From the IMG/VR virus record IMGVR_UViG_3300033273_000499: 64,000 nucleotides of DNA; one strand, written 5' to 3'. Under the pieces are notes generated by a model. The model searched no databases. It saw only the letters and a list, made by a program, of their open reading frames with translations, and had not been told where the DNA came from. Position numbers and translations under genes: made by a program. Origin of the DNA: a virus. Of the stretch, positions 8,498 through 35,481 are shown piece after piece; position 1 is the first letter of the stretch, and each line of letters opens with the position of its first letter.

Positions 8498-8505
8498 TAT
8501 TTATA
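8498..8505 (-). promoter_or_regulatory. T4 late promoter consensus TATAAATA
   Basis: Plus-strand tatttata; 25 nt upstream of the ATG at 8473. Confidence 0.75.
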
Positions 8506-9315: not shown

Positions 9316-9673
9316 CACGGATACTATCAGAGTCAAAATGCTCTGTACTGAACTCAAACAGCTCTGTGTCTTCCATACCATACATCTGATGTCTCATACC
9401 AACTGGAACATGGAACTTATCTCCACGTTCCAGAATTGCTATGGAACCTAGTTCTTGATTGTCTGACCAACCATATTTAATTTTAATTTTTCCACTCTGA
9501 ACGTAGAAAACTTCATCCTTTTTATTATGATAGTGCCATGAGCACTTCTTTCCCTTAGCAATATACAGAAGTTTTCCGCAGTACTGCTCACAATTTACAA
9601 TCCATTTTTCAAATCCCCACCCTTTAGGTACGAACTTAATATCTTGCCCTGCTCTGGGTCTAGAAGAAGTCAT
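9293..9673 (-). CDS. Cupin, mannose-6-phosphate isomerase / lyxose ketol-isomerase-like
   Basis: KGWGFEKWI, CSWHYHNKKDEVFYVQSG (HxHx4E), FHVPVGMRHQM cupin metal-binding motifs. Confidence 0.75.
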   Translation of the reverse strand: MTSSRPRAGQDIKFVPKGWGFEKWIVNCEQYCGKLLYIAKGKKCSWHYHNKKDEVFYVQSGKIKIKYGWSDNQELGSIAILERGDKFHVPVGMRHQMYGMEDTELFEFSTEHFDSDSIRVTPGDTL

Positions 9674-9986: not shown

Positions 9987-10728
9987 CTTTTTTCTGTAAA
10001 ACGTATGTTCCTTGGTTTTGTACTGCAACTGCTGCTGCCTTATTTGCTAGAGATAATGCTCTCGATATATCACCTTCTGTCTTTAGATATCCATATGTCA
10101 ATGCTGCAAGGAAAGTGTCACCCGCACCAACAACATCATAGACTTTTACTTTCTCTGCAGGATATAAAGTGTGGTTATACACACATCCTTGACTACCTTT
10201 TGTAACAATTAAATTTTTATAATCATAAGGTTGAAGTCTATCATATTCAATGTCGTTTATTTTGATAAAGCAATTTTCTTTATCGGGAAGAACTGTTTTC
10301 TTACTATCAATAAAAACAGGAACATTGGATGATTCAACTATTTCAAATAGTTTTTTATCTGTTAGATATCCTTTGTTATAGTCTGATATGACAACAGCAT
10401 CAAACCCATTTGTCATAACAGGTAATATTAATGGTGAAACTCTAGATTCATTATCAACTCTCAACATTTGTTGATTTGATTTTTCTTCAATGAATCTAGT
10501 TTTTGTTATCTGCTCATTATTGGTTAAAAATGTAACTTCTAAATCAAATGCTTGTAGATTTAGATATACATTTCCTGCCATCCCTGCTTTAGTTTCTATT
10601 TTAGAATAGTTTAAAACAGGAACAGGTGCCTCGGGATTTAACCGTTCGCACCTGCCATAGATGTACTCATCTTCACAACTATCACCTATCAGCAATACTT
10701 TGAATAATTTTTGTTGAGGAGTATCCAT
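9958..10728 (-). CDS. PfkB-family heptose-7-phosphate kinase (stand-alone HldE kinase domain, HldA-like)
   Basis: KVLLIGDSCED...RLNPEAPVPV, GMAGNV..N, ITKTRF, RVD, VISDYNKG, DVVGAGDTFLAAL; ATG at 10728 (track start at 10740 is TTG). Confidence 0.85.
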   Translation of the reverse strand: MDTPQQKLFKVLLIGDSCEDEYIYGRCERLNPEAPVPVLNYSKIETKAGMAGNVYLNLQAFDLEVTFLTNNEQITKTRFIEEKSNQQMLRVDNESRVSPLILPVMTNGFDAVVISDYNKGYLTDKKLFEIVESSNVPVFIDSKKTVLPDKENCFIKINDIEYDRLQPYDYKNLIVTKGSQGCVYNHTLYPAEKVKVYDVVGAGDTFLAALTYGYLKTEGDISRALSLANKAAAVAVQNQGTYVLQKKDVEKICNRR

Positions 10729-11080
10729 CGATTCTATCAAAAAATTTCAGTGTTTTTGCATATTGAGACCCAATGACGGGTTTTCCCTTCCAATCAGAAC
10801 CAACAACCATTACATCTGGGTTGATTTTTTTAATTAAATCTTCTAGTTGTTTATCAGTTCCAAATGACAATACTAGGTCAACCATATCTAAGTGTTGGAG
10901 CATGAAAATCCTTTCGGATTCCACATTGATTGGACGAGAATCCCCTTTCTTTTCCTTTATCCTTTCGTCTGTATCTACAGCAACTATTAACTTTGTTCCT
11001 TGAGATTTTGCATACTTGAGGAGCATAAGATGCCCTCTGTGGAGGACATCAAATGTTCCATTTACGAAAACAGTCTTCAT
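10682..11080 (-). CDS. Heptose-1-phosphate nucleotidyltransferase (stand-alone HldE C-domain, HldC-like; cytidylyltransferase family)
   Basis: VNGTFDVLHRGH (HxGH), KGDSRPIN...ER, VVGSDWKGK..IG, RIDGYSST. Confidence 0.85.
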   Translation of the reverse strand: MKTVFVNGTFDVLHRGHLMLLKYAKSQGTKLIVAVDTDERIKEKKGDSRPINVESERIFMLQHLDMVDLVLSFGTDKQLEDLIKKINPDVMVVGSDWKGKPVIGSQYAKTLKFFDRIDGYSSTKIIQSIADR

Positions 11081-12768
11081 TCGTTGGGGACGTAGACTAG
11101 TTTTTGAATCTCAGGGAAGTAGCAATATTCAATATCACTATTCTTCAGGGTCTTAACTGCATCTTCTACTGTCTCTACGAGAGGTTCACCACCAAGATTG
11201 AACGAAGTGTTGAACAGGATTGGGACTTCACTCAACTTCTCAAAAGCATCAATGAGATTGTAGTAATGCTCGTTCTGCTCTGGAGTTACAGTCTGAATAC
11301 GGCATGTACCGTCTACGTGAATGACTGAAGGAATCTTTTCTTCTACACCTTCATGGCACTTGACAGCATACATCATGTGGGGAGTTTCTTCACGGCCAGC
11401 AAGGTCGAACCAGTCATGAACTGCTTCTTTCTTGATAGAGCAAGCAAATGGTCTGAACCATTCACGACGTTTGACTGCATTAACATGGTCCTTACCATCT
11501 TCAATCGTTGGGTCAAACAGAATAGAACGGTTGCCCAGTGCACGGGGACCACCCTCAGAACGACCCTGATACATGGTGACGATGTTGCCCTCACGGATTA
11601 GTGCTGCGATATCATCATATGAAGTATCAGTTACCTGAAGACCTTCTAGGTCTGCTTCATAACCAGTTGGATCATACTGGGGACCATAGTAAACAGACTC
11701 TTGCTTACTTGGTTCAGTAGTTTCATTAATTTGATGCCAGATATACTTAGCACCACCGATTGATGTACCACCGTCATGTGAAATTGGCTCACAATAGATG
11801 TTGAGATCGGGGAAACGATTCCAATACTTATAGTTGGCAACACAGTTCAAACCATATCCACCACAAATAACGATATTGGTTTCACCAGTCTTTTCGTGAG
11901 CAATTTCAATCAGTTCACACATACGGTCAGAAGTCTGCTCCTGAATCTTGTATGCCATGTCCTTTTGAATGTCAGTGTACTGTCCCTGTACATGCTCCTG
12001 AACATCCTTCATTAGGATTGGATAACGACCAGCATTGATTTTTGCTGCATTTGGATATGTTGGGATAATCAATTCACGATTGCCCCAACCATTTCTGAAG
12101 AAGTCAGGAAGGTCATCATTGGGTTTACCATATGGAGCAAGACCCATCAATTTACCTGCTTCGATTGCAGGGAATCCACAGTATTCGGTAACTGCTTCAT
12201 ACATTTTTGTATGACCAGGATACTCTGTTAACCAGATACCATCATCTACTTGATTGCAACCAATAGCTGCTTTTGTTCCAATATGTTTGAATACTTTCTG
12301 GAAATTTTCACCAGCACCATAATCTGCTTTATAAATCGACTCAAATTCAAACATAACATCCTCAATACCTTCGTATTGGAGGAAACTTCCTGCACCATCA
12401 GCAATGACACAAGCAGCAGTGTCGAAACCAGAGTTATAGAAACCACATGCAGCGTGCATATCATGGTGAATCAGGTCAATAAAGTGAGTTTCAAACTCAA
12501 ACTTCTTCTTAGCAAGTTTTCTTACGAATCCCTGATACATGTCCTCACCAGTCCAATCTAATTGAGGACCATGACGGTGAGTGTGGCAAACGACCAAGTG
12601 GTCAATATGGTCAACGTAATCAAATACTTTTTGAAGTCCTAGAAGGGGAGAACCATCATACTTAAATCTAGAAAGTCTTTCTTCTTCAAGATAAAAGATG
12701 ATTTCACCATCTTTCATAAGGGTTGTACTCCCGTTATGACCACGGGCAACCGATGCGATAATTGTCAT
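11077..12768 (-). CDS. O-carbamoyltransferase (NodU/CmcH family)
   Basis: EEERLSRFK, HHDMHA, GKLMGLAPYG, GGYGLNCVAN, SHDGGTSIG, GPRALGNRSIL, KRREWFRPFA, HVDGTCRIQT, NTSFNLGGEP. Confidence 0.92.
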   Translation of the reverse strand: MTIIASVARGHNGSTTLMKDGEIIFYLEEERLSRFKYDGSPLLGLQKVFDYVDHIDHLVVCHTHRHGPQLDWTGEDMYQGFVRKLAKKKFEFETHFIDLIHHDMHAACGFYNSGFDTAACVIADGAGSFLQYEGIEDVMFEFESIYKADYGAGENFQKVFKHIGTKAAIGCNQVDDGIWLTEYPGHTKMYEAVTEYCGFPAIEAGKLMGLAPYGKPNDDLPDFFRNGWGNRELIIPTYPNAAKINAGRYPILMKDVQEHVQGQYTDIQKDMAYKIQEQTSDRMCELIEIAHEKTGETNIVICGGYGLNCVANYKYWNRFPDLNIYCEPISHDGGTSIGGAKYIWHQINETTEPSKQESVYYGPQYDPTGYEADLEGLQVTDTSYDDIAALIREGNIVTMYQGRSEGGPRALGNRSILFDPTIEDGKDHVNAVKRREWFRPFACSIKKEAVHDWFDLAGREETPHMMYAVKCHEGVEEKIPSVIHVDGTCRIQTVTPEQNEHYYNLIDAFEKLSEVPILFNTSFNLGGEPLVETVEDAVKTLKNSDIEYCYFPEIQKLVYVPNE

Positions 12769-12777
12769 TGTCTAACC

Positions 12778-13953
12778 TCAATTTTTAACAGTTTCAACAA
12801 ATCCCTTCTTGGAATTTGATTTTGATTGAATTCCACTCTCCTTAAGTAGAGATTCTACCGCACTTGCAGACTTTTTGGAAGTGCCTGGAAGAGTTGCTGG
12901 TGATGCCTCACTTGGTGAAAACCCTGGCATTGGTCCTTGTGCTTCCTGTGGTGGGCAACAAGCACCTGTTGGTGCTCCATCTTGTCCAGGAAGAATAATA
13001 ACATCTTTATTCTTCACATAATATCTATTCATCAATTTATCTGTTGATTTAATGATGACATCTTCAATTGCACCATTCATTGCCATGATTCCATCATTTT
13101 GTCTTTGTGTGACTTCATCCATAGAAATGCGAATTGGATCATAGATACGTTGACCCTCACCCATATCCAAAACATCAAATTTTTCACATCCAGGATAGCT
13201 AATATTTTCCTTACATGTAGCTCCAACAACCACTACTGCTGGTGTATCAAATGAATAAGCCATATGTTGACCAACTGAGTCACATCCGAGAAATAAATCT
13301 GCTTCGGACACAATACCTGCCCACTGCCGTAAATCAATTCCTCTTGGATGTGCCACAGGGTCCTTACACCCTTCTTTGGAAAAATCAAATTCCATTTCAC
13401 CAAAATAAATTACTGCATATTTTTTCTGCAGTTTTTTGATAATACTGACTACGTTGATGAATTCAAAACTTCTTCCACTTGAATCTGTGACAAAATTCCC
13501 AACCATTTGAGAACCTCGTCCAAATGGTTGAAAGACAACAACCTTATCCTTCTTTGTCTTCTGTCTTACTTCTTCAACAATAAACTTTGCATTGATTGCT
13601 TCTTGACGAGAAAGTCTAATTGTTGGTTTTTGAAGTTCTCTTACACCTTCTCCATTAATCTGAATATCGTATGCCTGGGAAAGATTACACTTTTGATTAT
13701 AGTATTCCCAAATTCTATATGGTTCTGTTGATACTATCTCTCTATCTTTCAACTTGTCTCTAAACAAGTTTTTATGCCAACTGTCGTATGTTCTTTTAAA
13801 AAGTGTTGGGTGACCTTTAAAAAAGTCAGTGCCACCTTCCGCAACGATGATAAAATCATCATCTGGATTCTGCTCTTCATACTTCTCTAAAGCAGGAATA
13901 GCACAAATCACACGGCCAGCACCACCATTAATAAAAAATGCTTTCGATCTCAT
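12778..13953 (-). CDS. GT-B glycosyltransferase, GT9 / heptosyltransferase-like
   Basis: INGGAGRVICAIPAL N-terminal motif, VVFQPFGRG, DLRQWAGIVSEADLFLGCDSVGQHMA...PAVVV (GT9-type DS..H.A motif); heads the heptose operon. Confidence 0.7.
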   Translation of the reverse strand: MRSKAFFINGGAGRVICAIPALEKYEEQNPDDDFIIVAEGGTDFFKGHPTLFKRTYDSWHKNLFRDKLKDREIVSTEPYRIWEYYNQKCNLSQAYDIQINGEGVRELQKPTIRLSRQEAINAKFIVEEVRQKTKKDKVVVFQPFGRGSQMVGNFVTDSSGRSFEFINVVSIIKKLQKKYAVIYFGEMEFDFSKEGCKDPVAHPRGIDLRQWAGIVSEADLFLGCDSVGQHMAYSFDTPAVVVVGATCKENISYPGCEKFDVLDMGEGQRIYDPIRISMDEVTQRQNDGIMAMNGAIEDVIIKSTDKLMNRYYVKNKDVIILPGQDGAPTGACCPPQEAQGPMPGFSPSEASPATLPGTSKKSASAVESLLKESGIQSKSNSKKGFVETVKN

Positions 13954-13996
13954 TGTATCGCCTCAAGGAACTGATAATGTTTTAATTATACAAATG

Positions 13997-14003
13997 TATT
14001 TAG
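13997..14003 (-). promoter_or_regulatory. Late promoter variant CTAAATA upstream of the glycosyltransferase operon
   Basis: Plus-strand tatttag, 44 nt upstream of the ATG at 13953. Confidence 0.45.
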
Positions 14004-14035
14004 ACGTAGATTGGGAAGTCAATTTCCACTAATCT

Positions 14036-14065
14036 AGTATAGCAAATTAACTATACCATAGTCAA
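14036..14065 (-). promoter_or_regulatory. Sigma70-type promoter TTGACT-N18-TATACT with extended -10 (TGc)
   Basis: Minus strand reads TTGACT atggtatagttaatttgc TATACT, pointing into the glycosyltransferase operon. Confidence 0.6.
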
Positions 14066-14742
14066 ATTGAATCCCACCCTTCCTGTAAATATGGTGTATG
14101 TGGGAAAGGAATCATCCAAGGAGTTTCAATGTAGTCAGCATACTTTTCCAAAACCATATCGAACTCTTTAATAAATTCATCCCAGACTTTTAGTTGACCA
14201 GGTGTAAATTCTGAAGTGTCATAATTTTTATAGAACTTTAGAGAATTATGATATCCCACTAAAAATTGCTCTTTTTCAACATATGGCAATTTCCATGGAT
14301 ATGGTTTGACAAATTCTCCATCATGATATTCAACAGCATCAACTTCAATAACATGATCGGGATACTGAACTGTCGGTCTGGAATAAAATGGCTCAGTTTC
14401 TCCAGGTAGTGTATATGTAGTTTGCGGCATTTCATCTGCCAATGGACCACCACCAACGATAGCCGCAAGAAGAACGGGGTCTTTTTCGATTGTAATTTGC
14501 ACTAACTCATGCCCACGTCCACACCATCTTTCTGCTGATATTTGATTTGCTTCTTCATCCAAGTCATCATTCCATAGATGATATCCCTCCCAATGTGCAA
14601 TTCTCCTGGAATCTTTCCCTACCTTTACCCATATTTTGGACGGACCTTCATACAACCATTCTCCCGTCAATTTTTTTTCATTAGTTTGTGCCAGATAATC
14701 ATCTGGTAAATCCATTAGTATTGTTTTCTTTATCTGTGGCAT
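14062..14742 (-). CDS. Putative tail-fibre assembly chaperone, paralog 2
   Basis: Clear paralog of 14826..15671 (LPDDYLA, EW.Y.GP, LPGE.EPFY.RPTVQ, PW..PFP..P); C-terminus resembles the Tfa-type W..Y...L...P...WP motif. Confidence 0.5.
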   Translation of the reverse strand: MPQIKKTILMDLPDDYLAQTNEKKLTGEWLYEGPSKIWVKVGKDSRRIAHWEGYHLWNDDLDEEANQISAERWCGRGHELVQITIEKDPVLLAAIVGGGPLADEMPQTTYTLPGETEPFYSRPTVQYPDHVIEVDAVEYHDGEFVKPYPWKLPYVEKEQFLVGYHNSLKFYKNYDTSEFTPGQLKVWDEFIKEFDMVLEKYADYIETPWMIPFPHTPYLQEGWDSI

Positions 14743-14776
14743 TGTGCTTAGTTCACATCAATAGTATTATATATGC

Positions 14777-14806
14777 AATAAAAAAGGGAGGGTTTCCCCT
14801 CCCTTT
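14777..14806 (-). terminator. Rho-independent terminator
   Basis: Minus strand aaagggaggg-GAAA-ccctcccttt followed by ttttatt; 10-bp stem with GNRA loop, downstream of 14826..15671. Confidence 0.85.
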
Positions 14807-14825
14807 CAATTATTTGATACTAAAA

Positions 14826-15671
14826 TCACTCTTCTTTTTCGATCTGTTCTGGTTCGATATCTGCTTTGTTTACTGCTACACCATTTACTTGCCACACTTC
14901 CATAGTTGTTCCTGCACCAACAATTTCGACAGGATGTTGAACTACAGGTGCTGCATCTGGTACTGTTGAAACCCCAACAGCAGTTCCTTCAGAAGACCAA
15001 TCTTCTTTAAACATTGGACTCTCTGGGAATGGAACTACCCAAGGAGTATCTAGATAATCAGCAAACTTGGTTGGGACGTTTTCAAACTCAGTAATGTAAG
15101 CATTCCACTTTGCTAATTGTGCAGAGGTCATGTCTTCAGTTGGAACTGCTTTTTCCGAGGAGAGGATTGCAGCATGTCCACTTAAAAATTGTTCTCTATT
15201 AATGTGAGGTTTTCTCCATGGGAAAGGAGTTATCCATGCATTTGCCTCTAGGTCATATCTAATATCACCTATTTCATATACCTTATCAGGACACTGTACA
15301 GTAGGTCTTGTATAAAATGGTTCTGATTCACCTGGAAGTGTAAGTGTAGTTTGAGATTCTCCACTTACATCAGGTTCATATTCATAAAATGCAGAAATTA
15401 AAATTGGATCATCTTCTGCAGTAATTAAAATTGCTCTTCTACCTACTCCAGCCCAAGTATTTGCACCTTCCTGATTAACTTCTAGGGATTCTTCATCGTT
15501 GTAATGACAATATCCCAATCCTTCTAGAAGTGCACCAGAAGTAGCATTGATAACTACAAATAATTTATCAGGACCAGTATAAGTCCATTCTCCAGATAAT
15601 CCATTTTCTGAAGTTTCTGCCAGATAGTCATCTGGAAGATTCATTGTAAAGGTTTTAGTGATGTTTGCCAT
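14826..15671 (-). CDS. Putative tail-fibre assembly chaperone, paralog 1
   Basis: 281 aa; LAKWNAYITEFENVPTKF...PWVVPFPESP; directly downstream of the three Cys-rich genes. Confidence 0.5.
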   Translation of the reverse strand: MANITKTFTMNLPDDYLAETSENGLSGEWTYTGPDKLFVVINATSGALLEGLGYCHYNDEESLEVNQEGANTWAGVGRRAILITAEDDPILISAFYEYEPDVSGESQTTLTLPGESEPFYTRPTVQCPDKVYEIGDIRYDLEANAWITPFPWRKPHINREQFLSGHAAILSSEKAVPTEDMTSAQLAKWNAYITEFENVPTKFADYLDTPWVVPFPESPMFKEDWSSEGTAVGVSTVPDAAPVVQHPVEIVGAGTTMEVWQVNGVAVNKADIEPEQIEKEE

Positions 15672-15705
15672 AGTTTAAGTGCTCCTTATCTATATTTACT
15701 AATTA

Positions 15706-16665
15706 TCAAACGTATCTGACGGTAACACGTACTGCACCTGCCCATCCTTGTATTCCACAGCAGCAACCACCACCACATACAGTAGCAGATGGACCACCGA
15801 GACCAGGGACATAGTTACCTTCCCAACGTCCACCAAATCCAATATTACCCGCAGCAAAGCACTGCTGGAAGTATCCACAAGTTGAGTTTTCGCACTGATG
15901 AACCATGATGTGTCCACCTTGCTGGTTAACAAGACCACCAGGAAATGGAACGTTGATTGTATTCCAGCAACGTCTATCGTGACAATTTAGTGAGTATGAA
16001 CCAGGAACACCGTATGCTCCACCATCTGCACCGAAGTATTGTGCACAGCAACCTACACAATCTGTTCCATAACCAACAATACCGTTGTTACCACCAAAAC
16101 CTTCAGTAGAACCAATCGCAGTCTTCCAAGTGCAAAGACCGTTTCCAGTGAAGTAACGAATACAGAATGAGCATCCTTTATATCCCCCATCTGCACAGAA
16201 GTTAGTAAGACCTTCTCCTGTTACATATGATTTTTCACCATCTCTACCACACAGACAACTCTGTCTGCAGGTCATTTGTCCAATATAGAAGTTATAAGGT
16301 GTTCCTGAAGCAATACCAGTAACAGTCTTATAGGCATATGCACCCGAACCACCAGGAATACCATAAGCACAACAGCAAGCACCTGCTCCAGAACCACCTG
16401 CACCCCAGATCTCAAAGGTAATTGAGGTCGTTCCAGTGCCAGGATAAGAAGGAACTTTCCAGCAGCAATATCTGTAGTTATTATAGGCCATCGTCTGGTC
16501 ACCAGCAGGTGCTGCACACATGGTCTCATCATGATCATTACAGTTAGCACAGGAGTGAGCTCTAAAGTAAGTTACTTGACCCTCCCTGAGTCTTCCGATA
16601 CCACCAGAGTGAATACCAGTAAAGTTTGGTTCAGCCGAACCTAATAATTCTCTAAGATTTGCCAT
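15706..16665 (-). CDS. Cys/Gly-rich adhesin-like virion protein, paralog 3
   Basis: MANLRELL start; FEIWGAGGSGAGACCC, GGSGAYAYK, GLTNFCADGG, FGADGGAYG, PFPGGL, GAVRVT; 27 Cys in 319 aa (hand count). Confidence 0.6.
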   Translation of the reverse strand: MANLRELLGSAEPNFTGIHSGGIGRLREGQVTYFRAHSCANCNDHDETMCAAPAGDQTMAYNNYRYCCWKVPSYPGTGTTSITFEIWGAGGSGAGACCCAYGIPGGSGAYAYKTVTGIASGTPYNFYIGQMTCRQSCLCGRDGEKSYVTGEGLTNFCADGGYKGCSFCIRYFTGNGLCTWKTAIGSTEGFGGNNGIVGYGTDCVGCCAQYFGADGGAYGVPGSYSLNCHDRRCWNTINVPFPGGLVNQQGGHIMVHQCENSTCGYFQQCFAAGNIGFGGRWEGNYVPGLGGPSATVCGGGCCCGIQGWAGAVRVTVRYV

Positions 16666-16694
16666 CTCTAATAAGTTCCTCGGTTGTTATAAAA

Positions 16695-16701
16695 TATTTA
16701 T
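16695..16701 (-). promoter_or_regulatory. Late promoter core ATAAATA overlapping the upstream stop codon
   Basis: Plus-strand tatttat, 30 nt upstream of the ATG at 16665. Confidence 0.55.
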
Positions 16702-17663
16702 CTGTAGGTAATTCTAATTAGACCAGAGGTTCCTGGTCCTGCATTATAGCAGTTACCACCACATGAGGTCATAGATGGGTGCCCAGCACCTCTCATTCCC
16801 ATGGAACATGCTTGGTTACCTGGCCATTCACCATGAGCACACATAACTCTTTCATGACATCCTCTATTTTGGTATTTGTCGATGAAGTATCTGGTGCATC
16901 TGTCTCTGAAACCACCTGCTTGTGGGATTCCCATTCTAACAAAACAGTTGTTTCCACAAATACAGTCTACACGGAACCATCCTGGTCTGCCTGGAACACC
17001 GAAGTCAGCACCATAATAACATGCACAATCCGTTGCTCTACATAACTGATCAGTACAGCAGCAAGGTTCTAGTGTGTAGCAACCTCCACTGTTGTAATGA
17101 CTACAACCATCTCCACCAGGACCCCAAGTACCAGTTAGATTAGTACCATGCTGGTCATGGAAGATGTAACAGCAAGTTCTACCTGGCATACCACCTTCTG
17201 CACAGAAGTTAGTAAGACCACAACCTGTAATATAAGTCTTGCAACCAGTTCTACCACTACAGCAGCAAGAACAGCTCGTTGGCATTCCAACGCACCATAA
17301 GTAACAAAGACCACCTAGTGTCTCCAGACCCATGTCTGATGCACAAAGTGTCTTCATTGCGTATGCACCAGCACCAGATGGACTACCTTGCTGACAGCAG
17401 CAAGCACCAGCACTTCCACCACCACCACCCCAAATGTGGAATTGAACGGTGGTTACACCTGGGTACACACAAAATCCACCACACCATTGACGATATGCAG
17501 TACTCTGTGGTTCTCTCCAGCAATGACCTGCATAGAAGATATCGTAACCTTCAGTTAGGACATTACCCCAACCATTACCCCATTGGGTTGAATTTGTACC
17601 ACAGACTCGTTCCTTGAGTGCCTCTTGGTTCTCTGTCTGTAGTAATTGTCTAAGATTTGCCAT
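16698..17663 (-). CDS. Cys/Gly-rich adhesin-like virion protein, paralog 2
   Basis: MANLRQLL start; FHIWGGGGGSAGACCC, GLTNFCAEGG, YGADFG, GLIRITYR; 36 Cys in 321 aa (hand count). Confidence 0.6.
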   Translation of the reverse strand: MANLRQLLQTENQEALKERVCGTNSTQWGNGWGNVLTEGYDIFYAGHCWREPQSTAYRQWCGGFCVYPGVTTVQFHIWGGGGGSAGACCCQQGSPSGAGAYAMKTLCASDMGLETLGGLCYLWCVGMPTSCSCCCSGRTGCKTYITGCGLTNFCAEGGMPGRTCCYIFHDQHGTNLTGTWGPGGDGCSHYNSGGCYTLEPCCCTDQLCRATDCACYYGADFGVPGRPGWFRVDCICGNNCFVRMGIPQAGGFRDRCTRYFIDKYQNRGCHERVMCAHGEWPGNQACSMGMRGAGHPSMTSCGGNCYNAGPGTSGLIRITYR

Positions 17664-17681
17664 GTTTAGATTTCCTCCTTA

Positions 17682-18809
17682 TCAACCGTAGGTAATGCGA
17701 ACCATTCCAGAGTGACCTGGACCACCGCAATAACAGTTGTTACCACCATGAGAACCAGCTGCACGTCCACCAAATCCAGGGATACCTTCATCAGCACCGT
17801 TAGATGCCCAACCAAAGTATTCGGGGTGCAAATAGTGTTGACCATTCTCACCACTTTGGTTCATATCATGATATCTCATGGTTAGATATCCACCCTTGGT
17901 ATTAATTAGACCACCAGGGAAAGGATGATACTGCTTAATCATACAGAAATCACCTGCATTATGGTTACATGGAGAACCAAGAAGACCAGGAAGACCATGA
18001 GCACCACCGTCTGCACCAAAGAATGGAGCACAGAAATTACATTGATTCCAGCAAAGACCACCGTAGCAGAAGTTTAGACCTGCATCACGGTATCTAACAC
18101 GTTTTCCGTTAGAACCGAAAGTAGTACCAGCACCAATCAGGTCATACATTTCACCTGTTGTATCTTGGTCAAACATTGGATAGTTACCAATGCCACTACC
18201 AGGGGTGAAGCAAGAGAATCCACAGTTTCCAGAAAGGTCACAGCATCTATGACAATCCATTGCACCATACTTATTATGATGCTCAGCACAATGCCAATCA
18301 CCATCAGCCATTGTGCAAAGACATGACATCTGTGTGTTGCAGTGGCAGATTGACATACCACCGTAACCACCTTCTGCACAGAAGTTGTTCAGTCCATGAC
18401 CAACAACAAAGGATTTACAACCATTATATCCTTGGTTGGTAGGTGTACAACATGAAGCAGATGCTACGCAGATTTCATATAAGCATCCACCTAAATCTGT
18501 ATCACTACAAATGCACTTATATGCATAAGCACCAGAACCACCAGGGGTTCCCCACATACAACAACAGGTTCCAGGACCTGAACCACCGCCACCCCAAATT
18601 TCAAACTTCAGGAAAGTTGTTCCTGCGGGTGGTCTCCAAATGAAGCACTCAAAGTAGTTATAACGGTTTACAGCACAGTGGGTACGCATTTGTACCTGCT
18701 TATATGCCGAACCTGGGTACTTTAATGGAGTTGTAGGTGATGTCGAGAATCCAGCAGAACTAATCTGCTGTTGATCAGCATAACTAATTAAATCTCTTAA
18801 ATTTGCCAT
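17682..18809 (-). CDS. Cys/Gly-rich adhesin-like virion protein, paralog 1
   Basis: MANLRDLI start; FEIWGGGGSGPGTCCC, GGSGAYAYK, GLNNFCAEGG, FGADGGAHG, PFPGGL, GMVRITYG; 31 Cys in 375 aa (hand count). Confidence 0.6.
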   Translation of the reverse strand: MANLRDLISYADQQQISSAGFSTSPTTPLKYPGSAYKQVQMRTHCAVNRYNYFECFIWRPPAGTTFLKFEIWGGGGSGPGTCCCMWGTPGGSGAYAYKCICSDTDLGGCLYEICVASASCCTPTNQGYNGCKSFVVGHGLNNFCAEGGYGGMSICHCNTQMSCLCTMADGDWHCAEHHNKYGAMDCHRCCDLSGNCGFSCFTPGSGIGNYPMFDQDTTGEMYDLIGAGTTFGSNGKRVRYRDAGLNFCYGGLCWNQCNFCAPFFGADGGAHGLPGLLGSPCNHNAGDFCMIKQYHPFPGGLINTKGGYLTMRYHDMNQSGENGQHYLHPEYFGWASNGADEGIPGFGGRAAGSHGGNNCYCGGPGHSGMVRITYG

Positions 18810-18840
18810 TTAAAACTCCTCTGTAAATTTTCAATGATTA

Positions 18841-19179
18841 TCAAGAGTTAAGGATAACCCAACCAAATGATGGACCAGAGTAGAGAAGTTCAACAGAGTT
18901 GTTAGGAATGTTGAGAGTTAGATTCTCGTTAAGATTAGCAATCTTGGTTGTTGCTGTATTGATGCCAACAGTTACATTGTTGGTGTTAAATGTGCCAGCA
19001 GCATCTACAATGTGAATTCTATCACCAACGTTTGCTGTATCAGCATTTGGAATGTTGAGGGTTACAGCAGTATTAGTTGTGTTAACAATATAGGTTTTGT
19101 TTGATGATGCGTTGTAAGGTGTGCTAGATACGTTTACCAGTTCAGTAGTAAAGCTAGCAGCAGAAATAAAACGTCCCAT
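18841..19179 (-). CDS. Small fibre-type beta-domain structural protein
   Basis: Y.VNT....VTL.IP....VGDRI.IVDAAGTF..NN motif common in phage fibre modules. Confidence 0.6.
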   Translation of the reverse strand: MGRFISAASFTTELVNVSSTPYNASSNKTYIVNTTNTAVTLNIPNADTANVGDRIHIVDAAGTFNTNNVTVGINTATTKIANLNENLTLNIPNNSVELLYSGPSFGWVILNS

Positions 19180-19202
19180 TGTACTTTAATTCTCCTAAGC
19201 TA

Positions 19203-19209
19203 TATTTAT
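19203..19209 (-). promoter_or_regulatory. Late promoter core ATAAATA
   Basis: Plus-strand tatttat, 24 nt upstream of the ATG at 19179. Confidence 0.55.
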
Positions 19210-19216
19210 GTAAGGT

Positions 19217-19537
19217 TTACAGAGTAGATTGTTCAACACCGTAAGCCGATGCCGTTACGTTGCTTGAGTTTGAATATACAACGATATTCTTCCCTGTTTG
19301 TACGACTAAACCAGTTCTTTCTAGAACACCGTTGGGTGCGATAAAAGAATCATACTCAATGAATTCTGCAGAAGTTGGTGTCGCAGTTGCTGCAATAGCT
19401 ACACGAACTGCAACGTCTGTAGAATTTCTGTTTGCGATGTTTACGTTAACGTATGATAGTGTAGACGTAGGAACTGTGTACACAGTTGTGTATGTTGTGG
19501 TGGCAAGTGCATTTTGCCCAAAAACTCCAGAAGCCAT
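19217..19537 (-). CDS. Small structural protein (106 aa), homologous to the repeats in 7379..8473
   Basis: TVYTVP...VNVNIANR...VRVAI...EFIEYD..I.PNGVLERTGLV..TG..IVVYS...AYGVE. Confidence 0.65.
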   Translation of the reverse strand: MASGVFGQNALATTTYTTVYTVPTSTLSYVNVNIANRNSTDVAVRVAIAATATPTSAEFIEYDSFIAPNGVLERTGLVVQTGKNIVVYSNSSNVTASAYGVEQSTL

Positions 19538-19577: not shown

Positions 19578-19585
19578 TATTTATA
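19578..19585 (-). promoter_or_regulatory. T4 late promoter consensus TATAAATA
   Basis: Plus-strand tatttata in the intergenic region upstream of 19537. Confidence 0.75.
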
Positions 19586-19645: not shown

Positions 19646-22600
19646 TCAGGAAGTTGCAACCCAATATGTGAACGGACGGTTTGTAACGAATGCGTTATCG
19701 ACGTATGCTTTAACTGCTGCCTGAGTAGGAACTTTCTCGTTGCTATTCTGGGAGAGTGTTATGTCAGTAGAGAATTCGTTAATTTGTGCACCCAACTGAG
19801 CACCGATGGAACCCAGTCTCAAGGAGGTCAGACCTGACAGGTCGAATGCGGAAGCATTCAGGGTTGCAGAACCAGTTGCCTGGTTGACCTTGAAGTACTT
19901 ACCAACACGGAAGTTACCTGATTGGTCAGTAGAGACGTAGTAGACACGTCCTGGATAATCCTCGGTAACCTCTCTTGACTGAATTGGGTCAATGGTTGGG
20001 AGACCTGGCCAGTTAGTGGTTGCAGTACCACCAGTACCGATTTGCAGGAAGTCATGACCTGTTAGTCTTACCTGTGAATACAGGTATCTGATTCTGAAGG
20101 TCTGCTCGTCAAATGCTTTTGCTTCCTTCTGCTCAGCAAGAACAAGTGTTGTCTTACCAACAGTATCAATACCAACACTGCTGACCTGCATGAATTCATT
20201 ATTAATCTTCAGATAGTTGCTGGAAGAGAATCCAGTAACATTGCTTGCTCTGAAGAAGTTATCAGTTGGGTCAACGTCCTTGATGATTTCAGTATTAGCA
20301 ATTGTTTGTGCAATACCAATTGCTCTAAAGTTAGTTCCGTTCGAGTAACCAGTTGCAATACCAGCACCTTCCTGTGCTCTCAGAACCGTCATTGCGATTG
20401 AAGAGTCAAGAGAGACAATCTTCATAAGTTCATCATTAGGTGTTAGAATGAAACCATTCTGGAAGAATCCACCTGTTGAACTTACAACAATCTGAGTATC
20501 ACTAGCACCGATTGGAGATGCAACTTGTGCAACGGTTTCAGTCCAAGGATAACTTGTGATTGAATTGTATGTTCCTCTATGTGAATCAGCAGTTGTAGTT
20601 AATCGTGCTCTGTCAACAAAGACTGAACCTCTACCATCTTGTGCTTGGTAAGAAGTATTCTGGATAACATAAGTGAAAGGATCTGCACCAGTGACTGTGT
20701 TAGCAGCACCAGAAAGAGAACCACCATCACCACTACCAGTAACAAATTCTACAGAACCACCTTCTTCAATTCCATTTTGGAGACCATTAACGACAAGAGT
20801 GAATCCTGCTTGACCAGTATTTGCGTCAGTATTATTTGTTAGATATGCCTGAGTACCAGAAGTATCACCTGTAATTAACTCATTTTGTACGAATCCAGTT
20901 CCATTTGGTCCCTTAGTGATTACGGAGTACCAAAGTGTTGCAATTGAAGTTTGTACAGAGTTAAGTTCACCAACAGCACCAGAGGTAGCACCAGTAACTC
21001 TTTCACCGCTGACAAATCCAGGTGTAGTTACTGTCTCTACGTTATACTGTAATCTGAGACCCTCCATGGTTCCAGTGAGGAAATTCTCATCAGTGTTGAA
21101 ACCAGAAGATACAATTGCATATTGACCCCAAGAAGAGTTGCCTGCAAGAGATCTAATTCTTCCTCCTCTTGTGCAGCAGTAAGAAACGTGAGCATAATAG
21201 GTAAAGCAAGAAACTGCTTCTGCGGCACCATTGTTTGTAACCCAGAAACCAACACCATTGTCATGAATGTTTGTCCAAGAGTCAAAAACGATAGACTTGT
21301 TAGACTCGTTTGCTGTACCTTCATATTGTTCATGGTCTTTACCATCAACAATTGCACCAACACCACCAGTTGAGAATGCTGAGCAGTTGGAAATATATGG
21401 TGACTTAGTAATTGGGGAGTTTGGATTCAGTCTTACATATACACCTCTAATGGTTGCATTATTGAGGTCATATGCTTGTGCGGTAAATGTAGCTGTTGTG
21501 GAAATAACTGTTTGTGAGATGTCAACTTCAACTGTTGTTGCATTGATAAAGTTAACAATCTTTGTACCTGCAGCAATTCCTGTACCAGAAACGGTTGTAC
21601 CAACCATATCTGGAGTCAATTCTTCAGTAGAGTTAGTCAGTGTAGTTCCACTAATTACAGCTGGTGCAACTAAAATCTGACCAGGAACAATAAATCCACT
21701 GAGTCCTTCCATAACAATGTCTTTCAACATTGTTCTGTCACTCATCATGAACATTGTTGACTGAGCATTAGTAAATGTTGTTACCGCATCAACTGTGATA
21801 TCAGTACCACCATTTTCCCAGGTATCAACACCACTTACCCATGCTCCACCAGTTACTGGTTCAATTTCTACTTCAGTTTCTGCATAGTTGTATCTAAGAA
21901 TTCTTGCTGTCTTGGTTCCTGCACCATTAGTAATGGTTGCACCACGAACCATATCAGCAGTTGGGCTAGAATTCAGAGTCAGTAACTGATGATTTGCATT
22001 TCCTGCTGCTGGCTTGATCTTAGTTGTTCTAAGGTTATCACCAACAATAGTTACGTTTGCAGGAACTGTGATTGGAAGTTGCTCTTCGTAAGTACCTGCC
22101 TTAACATAAAGTGTTGCTGGACCAGTAATGATTCCGCAAGCATGGTTGATAGTTGCAAATGCACGGTTGATATTTGAACCGTCATTAGTATCACTACCTT
22201 CCTCTGCTACGTAGAAGACTGGTTGAGTTACATTATTTGTTTCCCACTGTGGTACTCCACCAGGAGCAACAGTTAGAACTTCACCATCACTACCGATTGG
22301 AAGTGCTGCTGGACCTGCACCAGATTGATAAAGAACATCACCAGTTGTGTTAAGTACGTTTGAAGAAGCACCTTGAGTGAGTGGATTCCAGTAATTACCG
22401 AGTGAATCGGTTGCAGGATCGTTGTTGAGGTTAGTCGATGCAACACTAACGTAGGAGTTAGAGTTTTTAGATACTGCATCACCTAACTGATAGGTTGTGG
22501 TTGTTGTCCAAGCACCTTTCCAGTCAAGACCCTTAACAATTAGGTCCCAATCATCAGGAATTTGTACTGGATTGCTGGTCATACCAGCACCAACTTCATC

Positions 22601-23179
22601 CTTTGCTACATATGCATAACCACCAAACTGTACAACTTCACCAGGCTTGTAGGAAGTTGCTGTGGAGTATGCACCAACAAAGTCGAATCCAGTTGTCAGT
22701 GTATCCCAATCATCGGAATAAGAACTTGGTTCTTTACCAGTATTATTTCTCTTTGCAACGTAGTTATGACCACCATAAAGTACTACGTCACCACTCTGGT
22801 ACTGAGTTCCACTTGCCCAATTTCCCTCGTAGTTAAATCCTCCAAAGTAAGAAACTAAATTGGTGGAATTAAATTCGGAAGTAGAAGCAAATGAAGACTG
22901 TACTCTAAACTGAGTATTACCATACTTAACAAGGTCATTAACCTTGTAGAATGTGGATGGTGCCCAATCACCTCTATTGGTGATACCCTCAACATGCAAA
23001 GACCAATTTGCTAGGTCTGTTGAGTACCAATCGGTTTCTGAAGCTACGGAGGTGTGGTTTGAAGTACAAACATAGGTGTTCGCACCGAACTTAACGATAT
23101 CATCGATTACGTAGTCGGTGGCACCAGTCCAAGCACCTCTCCAATTAAATTTTAGTCTTCCTAATCTAAAATCTGCCAT
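19646..23179 (-). CDS. Virion structural / tailspike-like protein with CBM5/12-like repeats and a pectin-lyase-like beta-helix
   Basis: MADFRLGRLKFNWRGAW start; repeated W..(G/S)T.Y..(G/N)D.V.YG...YV units; FYVAEEGSDTNDG...AFATINHA...VKAGTYEE beta-helix cap; LGSIGAQLGAQINEFSTD...VPTQAAVKAYVD end. Confidence 0.65.
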   Translation of the reverse strand: MADFRLGRLKFNWRGAWTGATDYVIDDIVKFGANTYVCTSNHTSVASETDWYSTDLANWSLHVEGITNRGDWAPSTFYKVNDLVKYGNTQFRVQSSFASTSEFNSTNLVSYFGGFNYEGNWASGTQYQSGDVVLYGGHNYVAKRNNTGKEPSSYSDDWDTLTTGFDFVGAYSTATSYKPGEVVQFGGYAYVAKDEVGAGMTSNPVQIPDDWDLIVKGLDWKGAWTTTTTYQLGDAVSKNSNSYVSVASTNLNNDPATDSLGNYWNPLTQGASSNVLNTTGDVLYQSGAGPAALPIGSDGEVLTVAPGGVPQWETNNVTQPVFYVAEEGSDTNDGSNINRAFATINHACGIITGPATLYVKAGTYEEQLPITVPANVTIVGDNLRTTKIKPAAGNANHQLLTLNSSPTADMVRGATITNGAGTKTARILRYNYAETEVEIEPVTGGAWVSGVDTWENGGTDITVDAVTTFTNAQSTMFMMSDRTMLKDIVMEGLSGFIVPGQILVAPAVISGTTLTNSTEELTPDMVGTTVSGTGIAAGTKIVNFINATTVEVDISQTVISTTATFTAQAYDLNNATIRGVYVRLNPNSPITKSPYISNCSAFSTGGVGAIVDGKDHEQYEGTANESNKSIVFDSWTNIHDNGVGFWVTNNGAAEAVSCFTYYAHVSYCCTRGGRIRSLAGNSSWGQYAIVSSGFNTDENFLTGTMEGLRLQYNVETVTTPGFVSGERVTGATSGAVGELNSVQTSIATLWYSVITKGPNGTGFVQNELITGDTSGTQAYLTNNTDANTGQAGFTLVVNGLQNGIEEGGSVEFVTGSGDGGSLSGAANTVTGADPFTYVIQNTSYQAQDGRGSVFVDRARLTTTADSHRGTYNSITSYPWTETVAQVASPIGASDTQIVVSSTGGFFQNGFILTPNDELMKIVSLDSSIAMTVLRAQEGAGIATGYSNGTNFRAIGIAQTIANTEIIKDVDPTDNFFRASNVTGFSSSNYLKINNEFMQVSSVGIDTVGKTTLVLAEQKEAKAFDEQTFRIRYLYSQVRLTGHDFLQIGTGGTATTNWPGLPTIDPIQSREVTEDYPGRVYYVSTDQSGNFRVGKYFKVNQATGSATLNASAFDLSGLTSLRLGSIGAQLGAQINEFSTDITLSQNSNEKVPTQAAVKAYVDNAFVTNRPFTYWVATS

Positions 23180-24065: not shown

Positions 24066-27000
24066 CAAATTATGTATATTCTGGTTGGTTTAGGTGCCCT
24101 AAATTCTATGTAACTATCTGTAGATGCACCGTTTGCCCGAGTTGTACTTGCTCCGATATATCCTGTTCTGACGAAGGATTCTTTGGAGAGACCAATAAGT
24201 CTGAAGAGTCCTTGCTGGGTCTGGTATGGTACAATTCTTGCCGCTGTAGTGCTGACAAATGTAAATACAGAACCAGAACCATCGAATGCGTTTGTCTTTG
24301 AAACTTCCGCAGAACCTCTGATGAGGAAGAGATTGTCTGATGGTGGAGAGAATGTGACAGTCTCTGTCTTGCTGACGAATGCGAAGAGTGATCCAGAACC
24401 AACATGGGGTGCTGGAGAACGAGATACATCTGCAGAACCAACGAATCTGAATACTCCACTTGCTGCACTGTTGATAACAGTAGATTCCGTCTTGCTGACG
24501 AATGTGAAGAGAGAACCAGAACCAGCATGTGCTGCAGTTCTCTTTTCTCCTGCGGTTCCAACAAAGTCGAAGAGTGCAGTTGCCTTCGGTACGAATGCAA
24601 CTCTTTCTGCTCCTCCACCAAATCCGAACAGTGCTCCACGACCAGGGTAGTTTCTGACTGGATCTGTTTTTGCAGAACCCTTGAACGAGAATACCGTTCC
24701 AGTAGTTGGTGGAATAGAAGTAGTTCTCTCTTCTGCACTGACGAAGAGTGTCTTGCCATTGACATCTGTAAAGGTGTCTTTGGTGTTGAACTTGAGAGTA
24801 CCAGTACCATTGTATTTGTTGGTACTTCTTTCTCCAGCAGTACCAGAAATCTTGAAGAGTCCATCCGATTCTGGTGATGCAACTCTGATTTCCGTCTTGC
24901 TGACGAATGCAAAGAGTCCACCAGAACCAATTTGCTGACGAGTAGAACGTTGAGAACCTGCACCAGCAAATCTGAACAGAGTTGTCTTGTCGATTGTATC
25001 GAGAAGTCTGGACTCTGTGGTTCCAGAAATACCAAATAGAGTACCAGAACCTTCGTAAGATCTGGTTCTTGCTTCTGCACCACTTCCCTGAGCAAGGAAG
25101 TGACCAGAACCAATATGACCAAGACTGAAGTTGAGGAATGCTTTTCCTGTTGTCTTGATTTCTGCAGAACCTTTGTATGCTTCGGTGTTCTTCTCGACAC
25201 CAGCACCCTGGAATCTGAATAGTGTTCCAGTAACTGGTGGTCTGCTTGCCGCAACGGTGACACCACCAATAAATCCGAATGCTGAACCAGATCCAATGAA
25301 TTCTCTGGTTCTTGGAGTTTCTGCACGACCAGCAAGGGTGAGTTTTCCGAAACCAACGTGAATTGGTCTGGTTTGTGTTCTTGCTTGACCAGCAAGAGTA
25401 AGTTCACCACCACCAGTATCAAAGTAGGTGAAGAAGAGTTTGACCTTACCAGCAACTCTGAACAGACCACCTTCAGTTGCTGTGGAGAATGTCTGTCTCT
25501 CAATACCAGAGATGTAACGTGGTTTCTCAGCAGCATCAAGACCAAGTTTCTTGCGTCTGAGATTGAATGTACCACCACCAATTTCGGTGAGAGAGAATCC
25601 AATAGCTGCAGCACCACCTGTCTTGAACAGAGTACCTGGTGGTTTTTCTGCTGCAGAGAAGGTTTCTGTCTTGCTGACGAATGTGAAGAGAGAACCAGTG
25701 CCGATTTCTGGAGCAGGAACAATTGCCTCTGCAGCAGAACCACCAACTCTGAATAGACCAGAAATTGGTGGGGTAGCAGAAAATACTTCCGCAGCACCAG
25801 TGAATGCAGAGAAGAGACCAGTACCAACGTAAGAATTGGTTGCTCTGAGTACTGCATTGCCAGTGACTTTGAATAGTCCAGTTGAGAACTCTGCAGTAGA
25901 AGTAGTCTCTGTCTTGCTGACAAAGGTAAACAAAGAACCAGAACCAACGAAGTCTCTTGCTCTTGGTGTTTGAGCAGTACCAGTGAATTTGAAGAGTGAG
26001 GTCTTCTCTTCGACCTTCGTGCTGGATTCTGCTGCTCCAGTGAACGCAAAGAGGGAACCAGAACCAACAAAGTCTCTTGCTCTTGGTGTTTGAGCAGTAC
26101 CATTGAGGTCTGCAACTGTTCCAGAACCAATATGACCAAGATGGAATGTGGTAATACCACGAGAACCATCTCCAATAACACCTGGAGAACTGAGTCCCAA
26201 ACGGAATGTACCGTTTCCAACGTAAGATTCGGTGTGTCTTTCTGTTGCTGTACCGTTGAATCTGAATATACCACCACCAATTTCTGGTGCAGGTGTTGCA
26301 GATTCTGTTCCACCAATGATACCAAATAGAGTACCACCAGTTTCTAGAACTCTGAGAGAGAATCTGATTTGTGCAGTATCTCCAGGTCCTCTTGTTCCAA
26401 CTTGGAATCCACCCGAACCTGCATAACCGAAGATTCTGACATCTCCAGCACCAGAAGCAAGTGTTGCTCTACCACTACCATTGAAGTTAGCAGTGATGAG
26501 TACAAGTGCAGAATCGTCTTCTTTAGTGCTGAACTTGATTCCACCAAATGGCAGTCTGGTTTCATTATCAGTAATGAGACCGTAGTCATCACGTTGCTGA
26601 GCAAAGTTGGTAGGTAGTTGAACAAATCCGTAATCGTTTGGTACTCTACCAAATTCAGATGCTATCTCATTTGCATATGTACTAATTGGTACATTTGCAT
26701 AGTCTGCAATTGTGGCATCGAGTTCCGTATTTGCAGGGAGTTCATTGATAAATCCATAGTCTTCACTCTCCAGACCAACTCTGGCAGAGTCGTTGTAACT
26801 GTAGACAACTCTTTCATCAGCAAATACTGCATCAACATCTGCATTGCCAATGTATCCAAAGAGTGAACCAGAACCAACTTGAATAGCAACCTTTCTGATT
26901 CCAGCACTGCCATGGAACTTGAATAGTCCATCGGATTCTGGTCTTGCAGAGTATGCATTTGCAGAACCCTCGAAGGCAAACAGAGTACCAGAACCAATAT

Positions 27001-35473: not shown

Positions 35474-35481
35474 TATTTATA
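35474..35481 (-). promoter_or_regulatory. T4 late promoter consensus TATAAATA
   Basis: Plus-strand tatttata in the intergenic region upstream of 35419. Confidence 0.75.

Follow-up and report, generated by a model that had tools for sequence, protein, structure and literature searches.

We analyzed a 64,000-nucleotide (nt) stretch of viral DNA (IMG/VR record IMGVR_UViG_3300033273_000499; the window, by which we mean that whole stretch), and in particular three tandem genes at positions 15706-18809 encoding proteins unusually rich in cysteine and glycine. The source phage is a marine T4-like cyanomyovirus. The reading that we favor, and consider rather probable, is that the products of the three genes are receptor-binding tip proteins, paralogous but not redundant, in which cysteines staple a glycine lattice and its loops. 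What is new here is a Cys-rich and very abundant marine version of an already known phage adhesin class, found within a chaperone–transferase cassette.

Three tandem cysteine- and glycine-rich paralogs

All three genes lie on the minus strand. Paralog 1 (17682..18809), a candidate Cys/Gly-rich adhesin of the TG fold, is 375 amino acids (aa) long with 31 Cys (8.3%) and one CCC triplet; paralog 2 (16698..17663), the most divergent copy, has 321 aa, 36 Cys (11.2%) and three CCC; and paralog 3 (15706..16665) has 319 aa, 27 Cys (8.5%) and two CCC. Glycine accounts for 17.3-19.4% of the residues. Since the median Cys content of the 45 open reading frames (ORFs) of at least 100 aa in the window is 0.67%, the paralogs carry roughly ten times the usual level, and a scan of the window with the hidden Markov model (HMM) of the family found no copies beyond the three. 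The sole other Cys-rich ORF of the window (24404-24877, plus strand; 157 aa, 11.5% Cys) runs antisense within the gene for a 1918-aa repeat protein and is probably a spurious frame arising from the codon bias of the repeat.

In a three-way alignment the paralogs are 37-41% identical in pairs, and the motifs MANLR, IWGxGG...GxCCC, GAYAxK, GLxNFCAxGG, GADxG and GxxRxT are invariant or nearly so. Block analysis gave three-way identities of 18/32, 8/12 and 5/12 in the conserved blocks as opposed to 4/87, 5/41 and 6/113 in the segments between them, which contain many gaps and carry most of the cysteines; the longest hypervariable insert, of 116 aa, separates NFCAEGG from GADGG in paralog 1. An earlier note on this DNA, made from the letters alone, had described three tandem Cys-rich paralogs with 27, 36 and 31 Cys and CCC triplets, in which conserved blocks alternate with hypervariable Cys-dense segments. 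The ORF coordinates and composition confirm the first part of that description, and the alignment and block analysis the second.

Predicted fold and structural relatives

In the models obtained, the fold is a TNF-like beta-sandwich combined with a glycine-rich lattice, an assignment based on matches to gp24 of cyanophage Pam3, to the tail tip of phage Bxb1 and to the TG domains of ALK and LTK, and on hits in BFVD and to the Pfam family Gly_rich_2. The AlphaFold2 model of the 319-aa paralog, built from a 122-sequence alignment, reached a predicted local distance difference test score (pLDDT) of 76 and a predicted template-modeling score (pTM) of 0.78, and that of the 321-aa paralog, made independently, a pLDDT of 78 and a pTM of 0.78; the 319-aa model is poorly defined over its first 25 residues and in the largest of its variable inserts. 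Exhaustive structural alignment (VIA) against 48,161 PDB representatives, with which Foldseek and VIA on the top-1000 Foldseek chains concur, ranked the Pam3 fiber protein gp24 (7ypx_A) first for both models (Z 16.4 over 195 residues at 2.9 Å for the 319-aa model; Z 16.2 over 187 aa at 3.0 Å for the 321-aa model), followed by a Bxb1 tail-tip chain (9d93_Qa; Z 13.6 and 12.8, respectively) and the ALK/LTK TG domains (Z 8-9.7 over about 160 residues; for ALK, 7nx3_A, Z 9.5 and 9.4). Matches below these three dropped to about Z 5 for the 319-aa and about Z 4 for the 321-aa model, and the Foldseek E-values of the top fold matches ranged from 1e-5 to 3e-5. Among the viral models of BFVD, 178 match at E<=1e-3, most of them labeled 'glycine-rich domain-containing' or minor tail proteins. 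When the sequences of the PDB were searched with profiles built from 3 and from 122 sequences, no match reached E<=10. Taken together, we regard the fold and the placement in the structural class of Pam3-gp24/Gly_rich_2 receptor-binding tip proteins as very likely, and the polyglycine sandwich for which the earlier note had proposed an AlphaFold check is indeed the type of fold that models and fold searches returned.

The comparison with Pam3 is the most informative one. There, the TG domain forms the host-recognizing end of the fiber, in which the glycine stems are conserved while the distal tip is hypervariable (PMC9608196, PMC9942802). gp24 (7YPX, 7YFW), the best structural match, resembles the window proteins in its TNF-like sandwich with glycine-rich motifs, Gly stems and hypervariable tip, and also in that a dedicated chaperone, gp25, which has a Tfa-like domain, follows it. 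It differs in that the two share only 17-20% identity, with no match at the sequence level in the PDB, and in that gp24 is a whole fiber with a long helical shaft, whereas the N-terminus of the window proteins amounts to no more than some 25-35 residues of little order: the structural match begins at model residue 27-37, and the region upstream has a pLDDT below 55 and contains two short helices at the most (residues 4-8 and 13-18). In gp24, moreover, Cys28 anchors the fiber to the wedge and the protein is not described as cysteine-rich in the Pam3 papers, whereas the window proteins contain 27-36 Cys.

In Bxb1, polyglycine-rich domains decorate the central fiber (PMC13252515). The Bxb1 tail-tip chain (9D93, Qa), as second-best fold match, and those minor tail proteins of mycobacteriophages that carry polyglycine-rich domains offer a parallel in that they form accessory domains on a central fiber and occur in several copies or paralogs per phage, but Bxb1 is a siphovirus of an actinobacterium and does not have the cassette of GT9-like and carbamoyltransferase genes described below. 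We know of no Cys enrichment in polyglycine-rich tail proteins of the Bxb1 type. The TG domain of ALK/LTK has the same supradomain topology but is part of a receptor of metazoans whose ligand is a protein cytokine, and any common ancestry would be remote.

As for the T-even gp38 adhesins, to which the earlier note had likened the layout of the three proteins, the analogy holds for the architecture but not for family membership. The S16/T2-type gp38 (6F45) is alike in principle, a polyglycine-type lattice presenting hypervariable loops at the fiber tip, and the authors of the Pam3 work noted a resemblance, only partial, between gp24 and gp38 (PMC9608196). However, gp38 differs in its middle domain, builds its lattice in three layers and docks to gp37 through an N-terminal domain; the sequences showed no similarity, and 6F45 is absent from the Foldseek list, from the VIA list for the top-1000 chains and from the VIA list for the 48,161 representatives, lists that a local lattice resemblance could escape.

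A large marine family

The family is very large. Close homologs fall into 119 clusters in a word-indexed search, and a profile search of 1.84 billion representatives retrieved at least 1,231 clusters at E<=1e-3, with 360 at E<=1e-10 (clusters being defined at 50% identity). Because these close and distant homologs share the Cys/Gly pattern, the pattern is not due to chance or to a compositional artefact. About 270 members were inspected, and all have 4-13% Cys and 11-25% Gly, the usual N-termini being MANLR-like, MAKNL-like or MAxDVL-like. A protein atlas assigns the family clusters to viruses, and they are marine. Using tblastn, we found the family in the cyanophages S-CAM1 and S-CAM3 (three copies each) and P-SSM2 and P-SSM5 (two each), as well as in S-SSM7, S-SSM6a, Sf-FS3 and single-cell viral contigs, and every annotated copy in the phage isolates found is a 'hypothetical protein'. 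Relatives were detectable at the protein level only, as a megablast search with the 3.1-kb region as query returned no match among 50,697 phage records. Our literature search found no paper on the Cys-rich family or on the adhesin–chaperone–transferase cassette.

Paralog 1 matches phrog_4205 (E 2e-61) and, just below the gathering score of 24.3, Pfam Gly_rich_2 (PF21722; 23.3 bits, E 7.5e-5), whereas paralogs 2 and 3 have no Gly_rich_2 match at E<=0.01. Since 50 of 122 homologs match Gly_rich_2 at E<=0.01 (the lowest E being 1e-9), and precomputed PF21722 matches exist for several of them, the three proteins appear, by profile similarity, to form part of a Cys-rich branch of Gly_rich_2, a branch that stands apart through its 6-13% Cys, conserved CCC and MANLR N-terminus, and whose members in the window score below the gathering score.

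A FastTree phylogeny of 136 members places paralog 2 together with S-CAM3 gp157 (support 96) and paralog 3 with S-CAM3 gp156 (support 89), while paralog 1 belongs to a clade of its own (support 100), in which its nearest relative, the metagenomic protein P0061, is 96% identical; the closest metagenomic relatives of paralogs 2 and 3 are 69% and 87% identical, respectively. As paralogs 2 and 3 pair with S-CAM3 genes occupying the same positions, the triplication must be older than the split from S-CAM3, and the retention of each old copy argues for non-redundant roles. In S-SSM7, P-SSM2 and two metagenomic loci (L004 and L014) the copies, numbering from one to six, cluster within genomes. Recent gene conversion among the paralogs of the window was considered and rejected, given that the longest shared DNA stretches measure 20-108 nt at 63-90% identity and that there are no long repeats.

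Conservation and possible roles of the cysteines

In a set of 17 orthologs of paralog 3, with identities of 50-86%, the conservation of Cys (0.85) is nearly that of Gly (0.88) and exceeds the overall value (0.67), hence the cysteines must be structurally or functionally required. Across 245 family members, about 20 alignment columns are Cys in at least 45% of the sequences, C99 and C157 (319-aa numbering) being Cys in 98%, and the conserved cysteines include the CCC after the first Gly box and a C(C/Y)C before the last strand. The length of the hypervariable insert that separates NFCAxGG from GADxG ranges from 26 to 169 residues across the family; the Cys density of the insert is 12.6%, and its Cys count rises with its length (r=0.75). 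Some Cys columns are gained or lost jointly, with correlations reaching r=0.84, which is what pairing or clustering of the residues would lead one to expect.

A polyglycine-II bundle held together by disulfides is known from the snow-flea antifreeze protein. That the cysteines of the window proteins act chiefly as structural cross-links is a possibility that we put at slightly less than even. The earlier note had called such a Cys density exceptional for a protein folded in the cytoplasm, which is fair, yet disulfides formed in virions after release have precedent in Pam3 (PMC9942802) and in phage Milano (PMC10811340). No thiol oxidoreductase gene was found among the window proteins scanned.

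Several observations weigh against our reading of the three proteins as disulfide-stapled adhesins of the virion. In the literature searched there is no proteomic or structural record placing homologs in the virion; the proteins do not have the long N-terminal helical shaft of Pam3 gp24; and the largest variable insert, which would be the part touching the receptor, is modeled at a pLDDT of only 40-58 in both paralogs. With respect to the cysteines, even and odd counts are equally frequent both for whole proteins (123 even vs 122 odd among the 245 members) and for the insert (53 even vs 50 odd), and close orthologs differ by a single Cys. Random parity and single-Cys turnover imply that a fixed disulfide pairing cannot be the whole explanation. 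The conservation of the cysteines speaks for a requirement, but the disulfide locking that the earlier note had envisaged is disfavored in the form of a purely fixed network.

An alternative, which we hold to be unlikely, is that Cys richness is itself a selected property of the adhesin slot and that the thiols are used chemically, either as acceptors for heptose or carbamoyl groups or in metal–thiolate clusters at the tip. In the latter version, the adhesin role is kept and many of the cysteines would form metal–thiolate sites or clusters (Zn, Fe or Cu) at lattice ends and in loops, so that the tip would be metal-loaded. This would agree with the lack of any preference for even Cys counts and with the tolerance of single-Cys turnover, as in metallothionein-like clusters, with the co-variation of a group of about four columns (C263, C269, C297 and C302 of the 319-aa protein), and with folding in a reducing cytoplasm, which leaves thiolates available. 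The residues replacing conserved Cys, among which Tyr (3.0-fold), His (2.8-fold) and Arg (2.3-fold) and also Asn are enriched, could be seen as pointing in the same direction, because His is not a single-nucleotide neighbor of Cys; however, the hint of ligand exchange is weak because Tyr and Arg, which are such neighbors, are enriched as well. In addition, the family alignment has no conserved His or Asp partners, and whereas CC and CCC are enriched twofold and fivefold relative to shuffled sequences, CxxC and CxC are not enriched. The spacing of classical metal-binding motifs is thereby rejected, which argues against classical Zn or Fe-S motifs as a form of the metal clusters proposed in the earlier note, and we regard metal–thiolate sites in general as improbable.

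The proposed adhesin slot in a conserved cassette

The paralogs belong to a cassette whose order is largely conserved: a CBM5/12 fiber gene, two genes of about 90-130 aa, the Cys/Gly paralogs, phrog_9740, phrog_8954 and a carbamoyltransferase. This synteny is kept in S-CAM1, S-CAM3, P-SSM2, S-SSM7, Sf-FS3 and five metagenomic contigs. In the window, the paralogs are followed on the same strand by a 281-aa protein (14826..15671), similar to phage tail chaperones of the Tfa/Phage_tail_APC type, and by a second phrog_9740 paralog of 226 aa (14062..14742; phrog_9740 E 4e-22), likewise chaperone-like. The window phrog_9740 proteins have no Pfam match at E<=5, and the relationship is seen through the 218-aa protein of metagenomic locus L004, which the 281-aa protein matches by BLASTP (E 2e-26) and which scores 40.5 bits against PF16778 Phage_tail_APC (gathering score 26.6); the protein in the same slot of locus L011 scores 38.3 bits. 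Orthologs of the 281-aa chaperone-like gene follow the adhesins in L013-L015. The phrog_9740 paralogs are unannotated everywhere, and all contexts examined have one such gene after the adhesins.

Could the Cys-rich proteins instead be assembly factors for the large fiber, or non-structural late proteins, rather than adhesins of the virion? T4 gp38 is an assembly chaperone and not a virion component, its T2 and S16 counterparts being adhesins, and neither proteomic records from particles nor annotations of the isolates speak for a place in the virion. However, dedicated Tfa-like chaperone genes already follow the paralogs, the solved structural relatives are virion receptor-binding domains, and fast-evolving inserts together with one to six diversified copies per genome fit receptor recognition better. 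We thus think an assembly or non-structural role very unlikely.

Next in the cassette come a 391-aa GT9-like (heptosyltransferase-like) protein (12778..13953, minus strand; phrog_8954 E 1e-169) and, as its last constant member, a 563-aa carbamoyltransferase of the NodU/CmcH type (11077..12768, minus strand; Carbam_trans_C E 3e-58, Carbam_trans_N E 1e-20). Against Pfam PF01075 Glyco_transf_9 the 391-aa protein scores 14.4 bits (gathering score 22), with only the C-terminal nucleotide-sugar half aligning, and its match to the NCBIfam heptosyltransferase III model (E 8e-6) is far below the cut-off of that model; among its homologs, a 57%-identical ortholog scores 21.3 bits against Glyco_transf_9, and a remote Vibrio phage homolog, with 25.4 bits, is above the threshold. 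Beyond the carbamoyltransferase lie genes for a cytidylyltransferase-like nucleotidyltransferase, a PfkB sugar kinase, an HAD phosphatase, a cupin and an epimerase, and the corresponding downstream genes are annotated as ADP-heptose-pathway enzymes in S-CAM3 and P-SSM2. A role of the cupin (9293-9673, minus strand, in the window; 15019-15375 in locus L001) as cysteine dioxygenase was rejected, since HMMs recognize only generic or sugar-type cupins (WbuC, PMI-like); the label 'cysteine dioxygenase' borne by its orthologs in S-CAM3 and P-SSM2 looks unsupported.

Adhesins (one to six copies), a chaperone-like gene, a GT9-like gene and a carbamoyltransferase gene occur together, in that order, in 5/5 metagenomic contexts (L004, L006 and L013-L015), and the cultured cyanophages that carry the GT9-like gene are also those that carry the adhesin family. 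The GT9-like gene is 55-60% identical across contexts. It is followed by the carbamoyltransferase gene in L006, L010, L011, L013-L015, P-SSM2, S-SSM7, S-CAM3 and Sf-FS3, while in L004 the two genes are adjacent but on the opposite strand. In the single-cell viral contigs AG-345-P14 and AG-345-O18 (L010 5105-5962; L011 4018-7160), the adhesin slot is occupied by proteins of 9.1, 9.6 and 10.6% Cys without detectable homology to the family (hhalign probability <2%). Further afield, homologs of the GT9-like phrog_8954 protein are encoded in the tail modules of about 30 Vibrio N4-like phages and of Aeromonas phage HJ05 (L008 7001-7735; L009 6995-7918), where they adjoin the sole tail proteins there that are enriched in Cys (4.4% and 4.1%), one of which has a weak Gly_rich_2 match and the C-terminal strand of the family. 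Finally, heptose and 3-deoxy-D-manno-oct-2-ulosonic acid (KDO) have been reported absent from cyanobacterial lipopolysaccharide (LPS) in a review (PMC4390846). A host LPS without heptose would explain why the phage has heptose-pathway genes of its own, provided that the sugar is meant for a product of the phage. Because of the co-occurrence, the Cys-rich slot, the remote homologs and the heptose observations, the adhesins seem, as far as can be judged from gene content, the most likely substrate of the GT9-like heptosyltransferase and the carbamoyltransferase, with host glycans as an alternative target.

Genetic linkage of an adhesin to a dedicated cytoplasmic glycosyltransferase is familiar from AIDA-I/AAH, TibA/TibC and HMW1/HMW1C, where the enzyme is of the GT-B type and, in the case of AAH and TibC, is heptosyltransferase-like and uses ADP-heptose. 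Those systems differ in that the adhesins are bacterial autotransporters modified on Ser/Thr or Asn. The parallel leads to the other version of the alternative, namely that the cysteines are acceptors for S-linked heptosylation by the GT9-like enzyme and/or carbamoylation by the NodU-type enzyme, with Cys-richness selected in the slot. The same associations of the GT9-like gene with Cys-rich or Cys-enriched proteins, including those of the single-cell contigs without detectable homology, count in its favor, as do the ADP-heptose genes of the phage set against a reportedly heptose-free host LPS, the cytoplasmic action of AAH, TibC and HMW1C on their adhesins, and the fact that HypF, whose C-terminal domains are like TobZ/NodU-type carbamoyltransferases, S-carbamoylates a Cys of HypE. 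However, known adhesin heptosyltransferases act on Ser/Thr and not on Cys, NodU/CmcH enzymes normally O-carbamoylate sugars, the conserved cysteines sit in structural blocks and would be buried, and GT9 membership of the 391-aa protein is below curated thresholds. Moreover, host surface glycans may be the target. Modification by the adjacent operon, also put forward in the earlier note, draws real comparative support from the co-occurrence of the GT9-like gene and the Cys-rich slot, but this singles out neither Cys nor a particular protein as the acceptor, and we judge thiol acceptors to be distinctly unlikely.

Genes of the 2-oxoglutarate (2OG)-Fe(II)/prolyl-hydroxylase-like type interleave with the cassette in Sf-FS3 (L012 7308-16589, four copies) and in two metagenomic loci (L006 11601-12185; L013 5317-5913), and are candidates for another protein-modifying activity; the scan of the window proteins at 10682-19537 revealed none.

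The surrounding tail module

The whole window is a baseplate and tail-fiber block, with baseplate wedge and gp9/10-like genes, tail-fiber PHROGs and giant structural proteins. Directly upstream of the cassette, a 1177-aa tail fiber with CBM5/12 modules (19646..23179, minus strand) matches phrog_9851 (E 0) and CBM_5_12 (E 2e-15). It is followed by a T4-type late-promoter motif, TATAAATA (19578..19585, minus strand), 41 nt upstream of the gene for a 106-aa small protein (19217..19537, minus strand; phrog_11338 tail fiber, E 4e-10), which is the first gene after the motif. Further TATAAATA motifs on the minus strand at 8498-8505 and 35474-35481 are, with this one, situated 25-55 nt upstream of three gene starts. 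All five matches in the window are on the coding strand, but their total count is not above chance, and the notion that they are T4-type late promoters from which the adhesin genes are expressed late with the fiber genes is only suggestive. Between the 106-aa gene and the paralogs, a 112-aa small protein (18841..19179, minus strand) with a weak match to T4_gp9_10_N and matches to tail-fiber and baseplate-connector PHROGs is a candidate adaptor between the fiber or baseplate and the adhesins. A pair of such small genes (106-130 aa) precedes the adhesins in S-CAM3, L004, L006 and L015; in P-SSM2 the second encodes 91 aa, and in S-SSM7 the pair is absent.

The fiber module of the window also contains a gene for a subtilisin-like S8 peptidase (29828-31753, minus strand), and such a gene is likewise found near the adhesin cassette of L004 (14279-15799), an unrelated 347-kb metagenomic contig.

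A model for the proposed cysteine-rich adhesins

If the three proteins are receptor-binding tip proteins, as we favor, one can envisage the following. The genes would probably be transcribed late together with the fiber genes, and the two Tfa-like chaperones encoded just downstream would serve folding and assembly. Each protein may dock through its N-terminal peptide, MANLRxL(L/I), onto a common site on the fiber or baseplate. Glycine-rich motifs would extend from the strands of the sandwich and pack into a polyglycine-type lattice, to which the conserved Gly boxes would correspond, and the unrelated, indel-rich segments would form fast-diversifying loops or inserts touching receptors on the host surface. 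The approximately 20 conserved cysteines and the 12-13% Cys of the inserts could hold this core-poor scaffold and its loops together, with disulfides forming mainly after lysis, when the virion meets oxic seawater, and a minority of the thiols probably unpaired, linking subunits or binding metal. The adhesins would perhaps be decorated by the GT9-like heptosyltransferase and the carbamoyltransferase.

Implications for cyanophage host recognition

T4-like cyanophages rank among the main killers of Prochlorococcus and Synechococcus, and their receptor-binding proteins are largely unassigned. The present analysis assigns a predicted fold and a probable function to this very large family, and singles out proteins that may determine host range in S-CAM1, S-CAM3, P-SSM2, S-SSM7 and numerous uncultured phages. 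For this fold, it is unusual that a glycine-lattice scaffold has a Cys content both extreme and conserved, and equally that it is invariably linked to a Tfa-like chaperone, a GT9-like transferase and a carbamoyltransferase. Since the adhesins are always found beside a fiber chaperone and sugar-transfer enzymes, they are probably cross-linked and perhaps chemically decorated. The cassette may in this way explain the heptose-pathway genes of cyanophages, which have so far been treated as 'auxiliary metabolic genes' acting on host LPS. Should the thiols turn out to be modification acceptors or metal ligands, this would constitute an undescribed chemistry for phage host recognition, and one that is abundant in the ocean.

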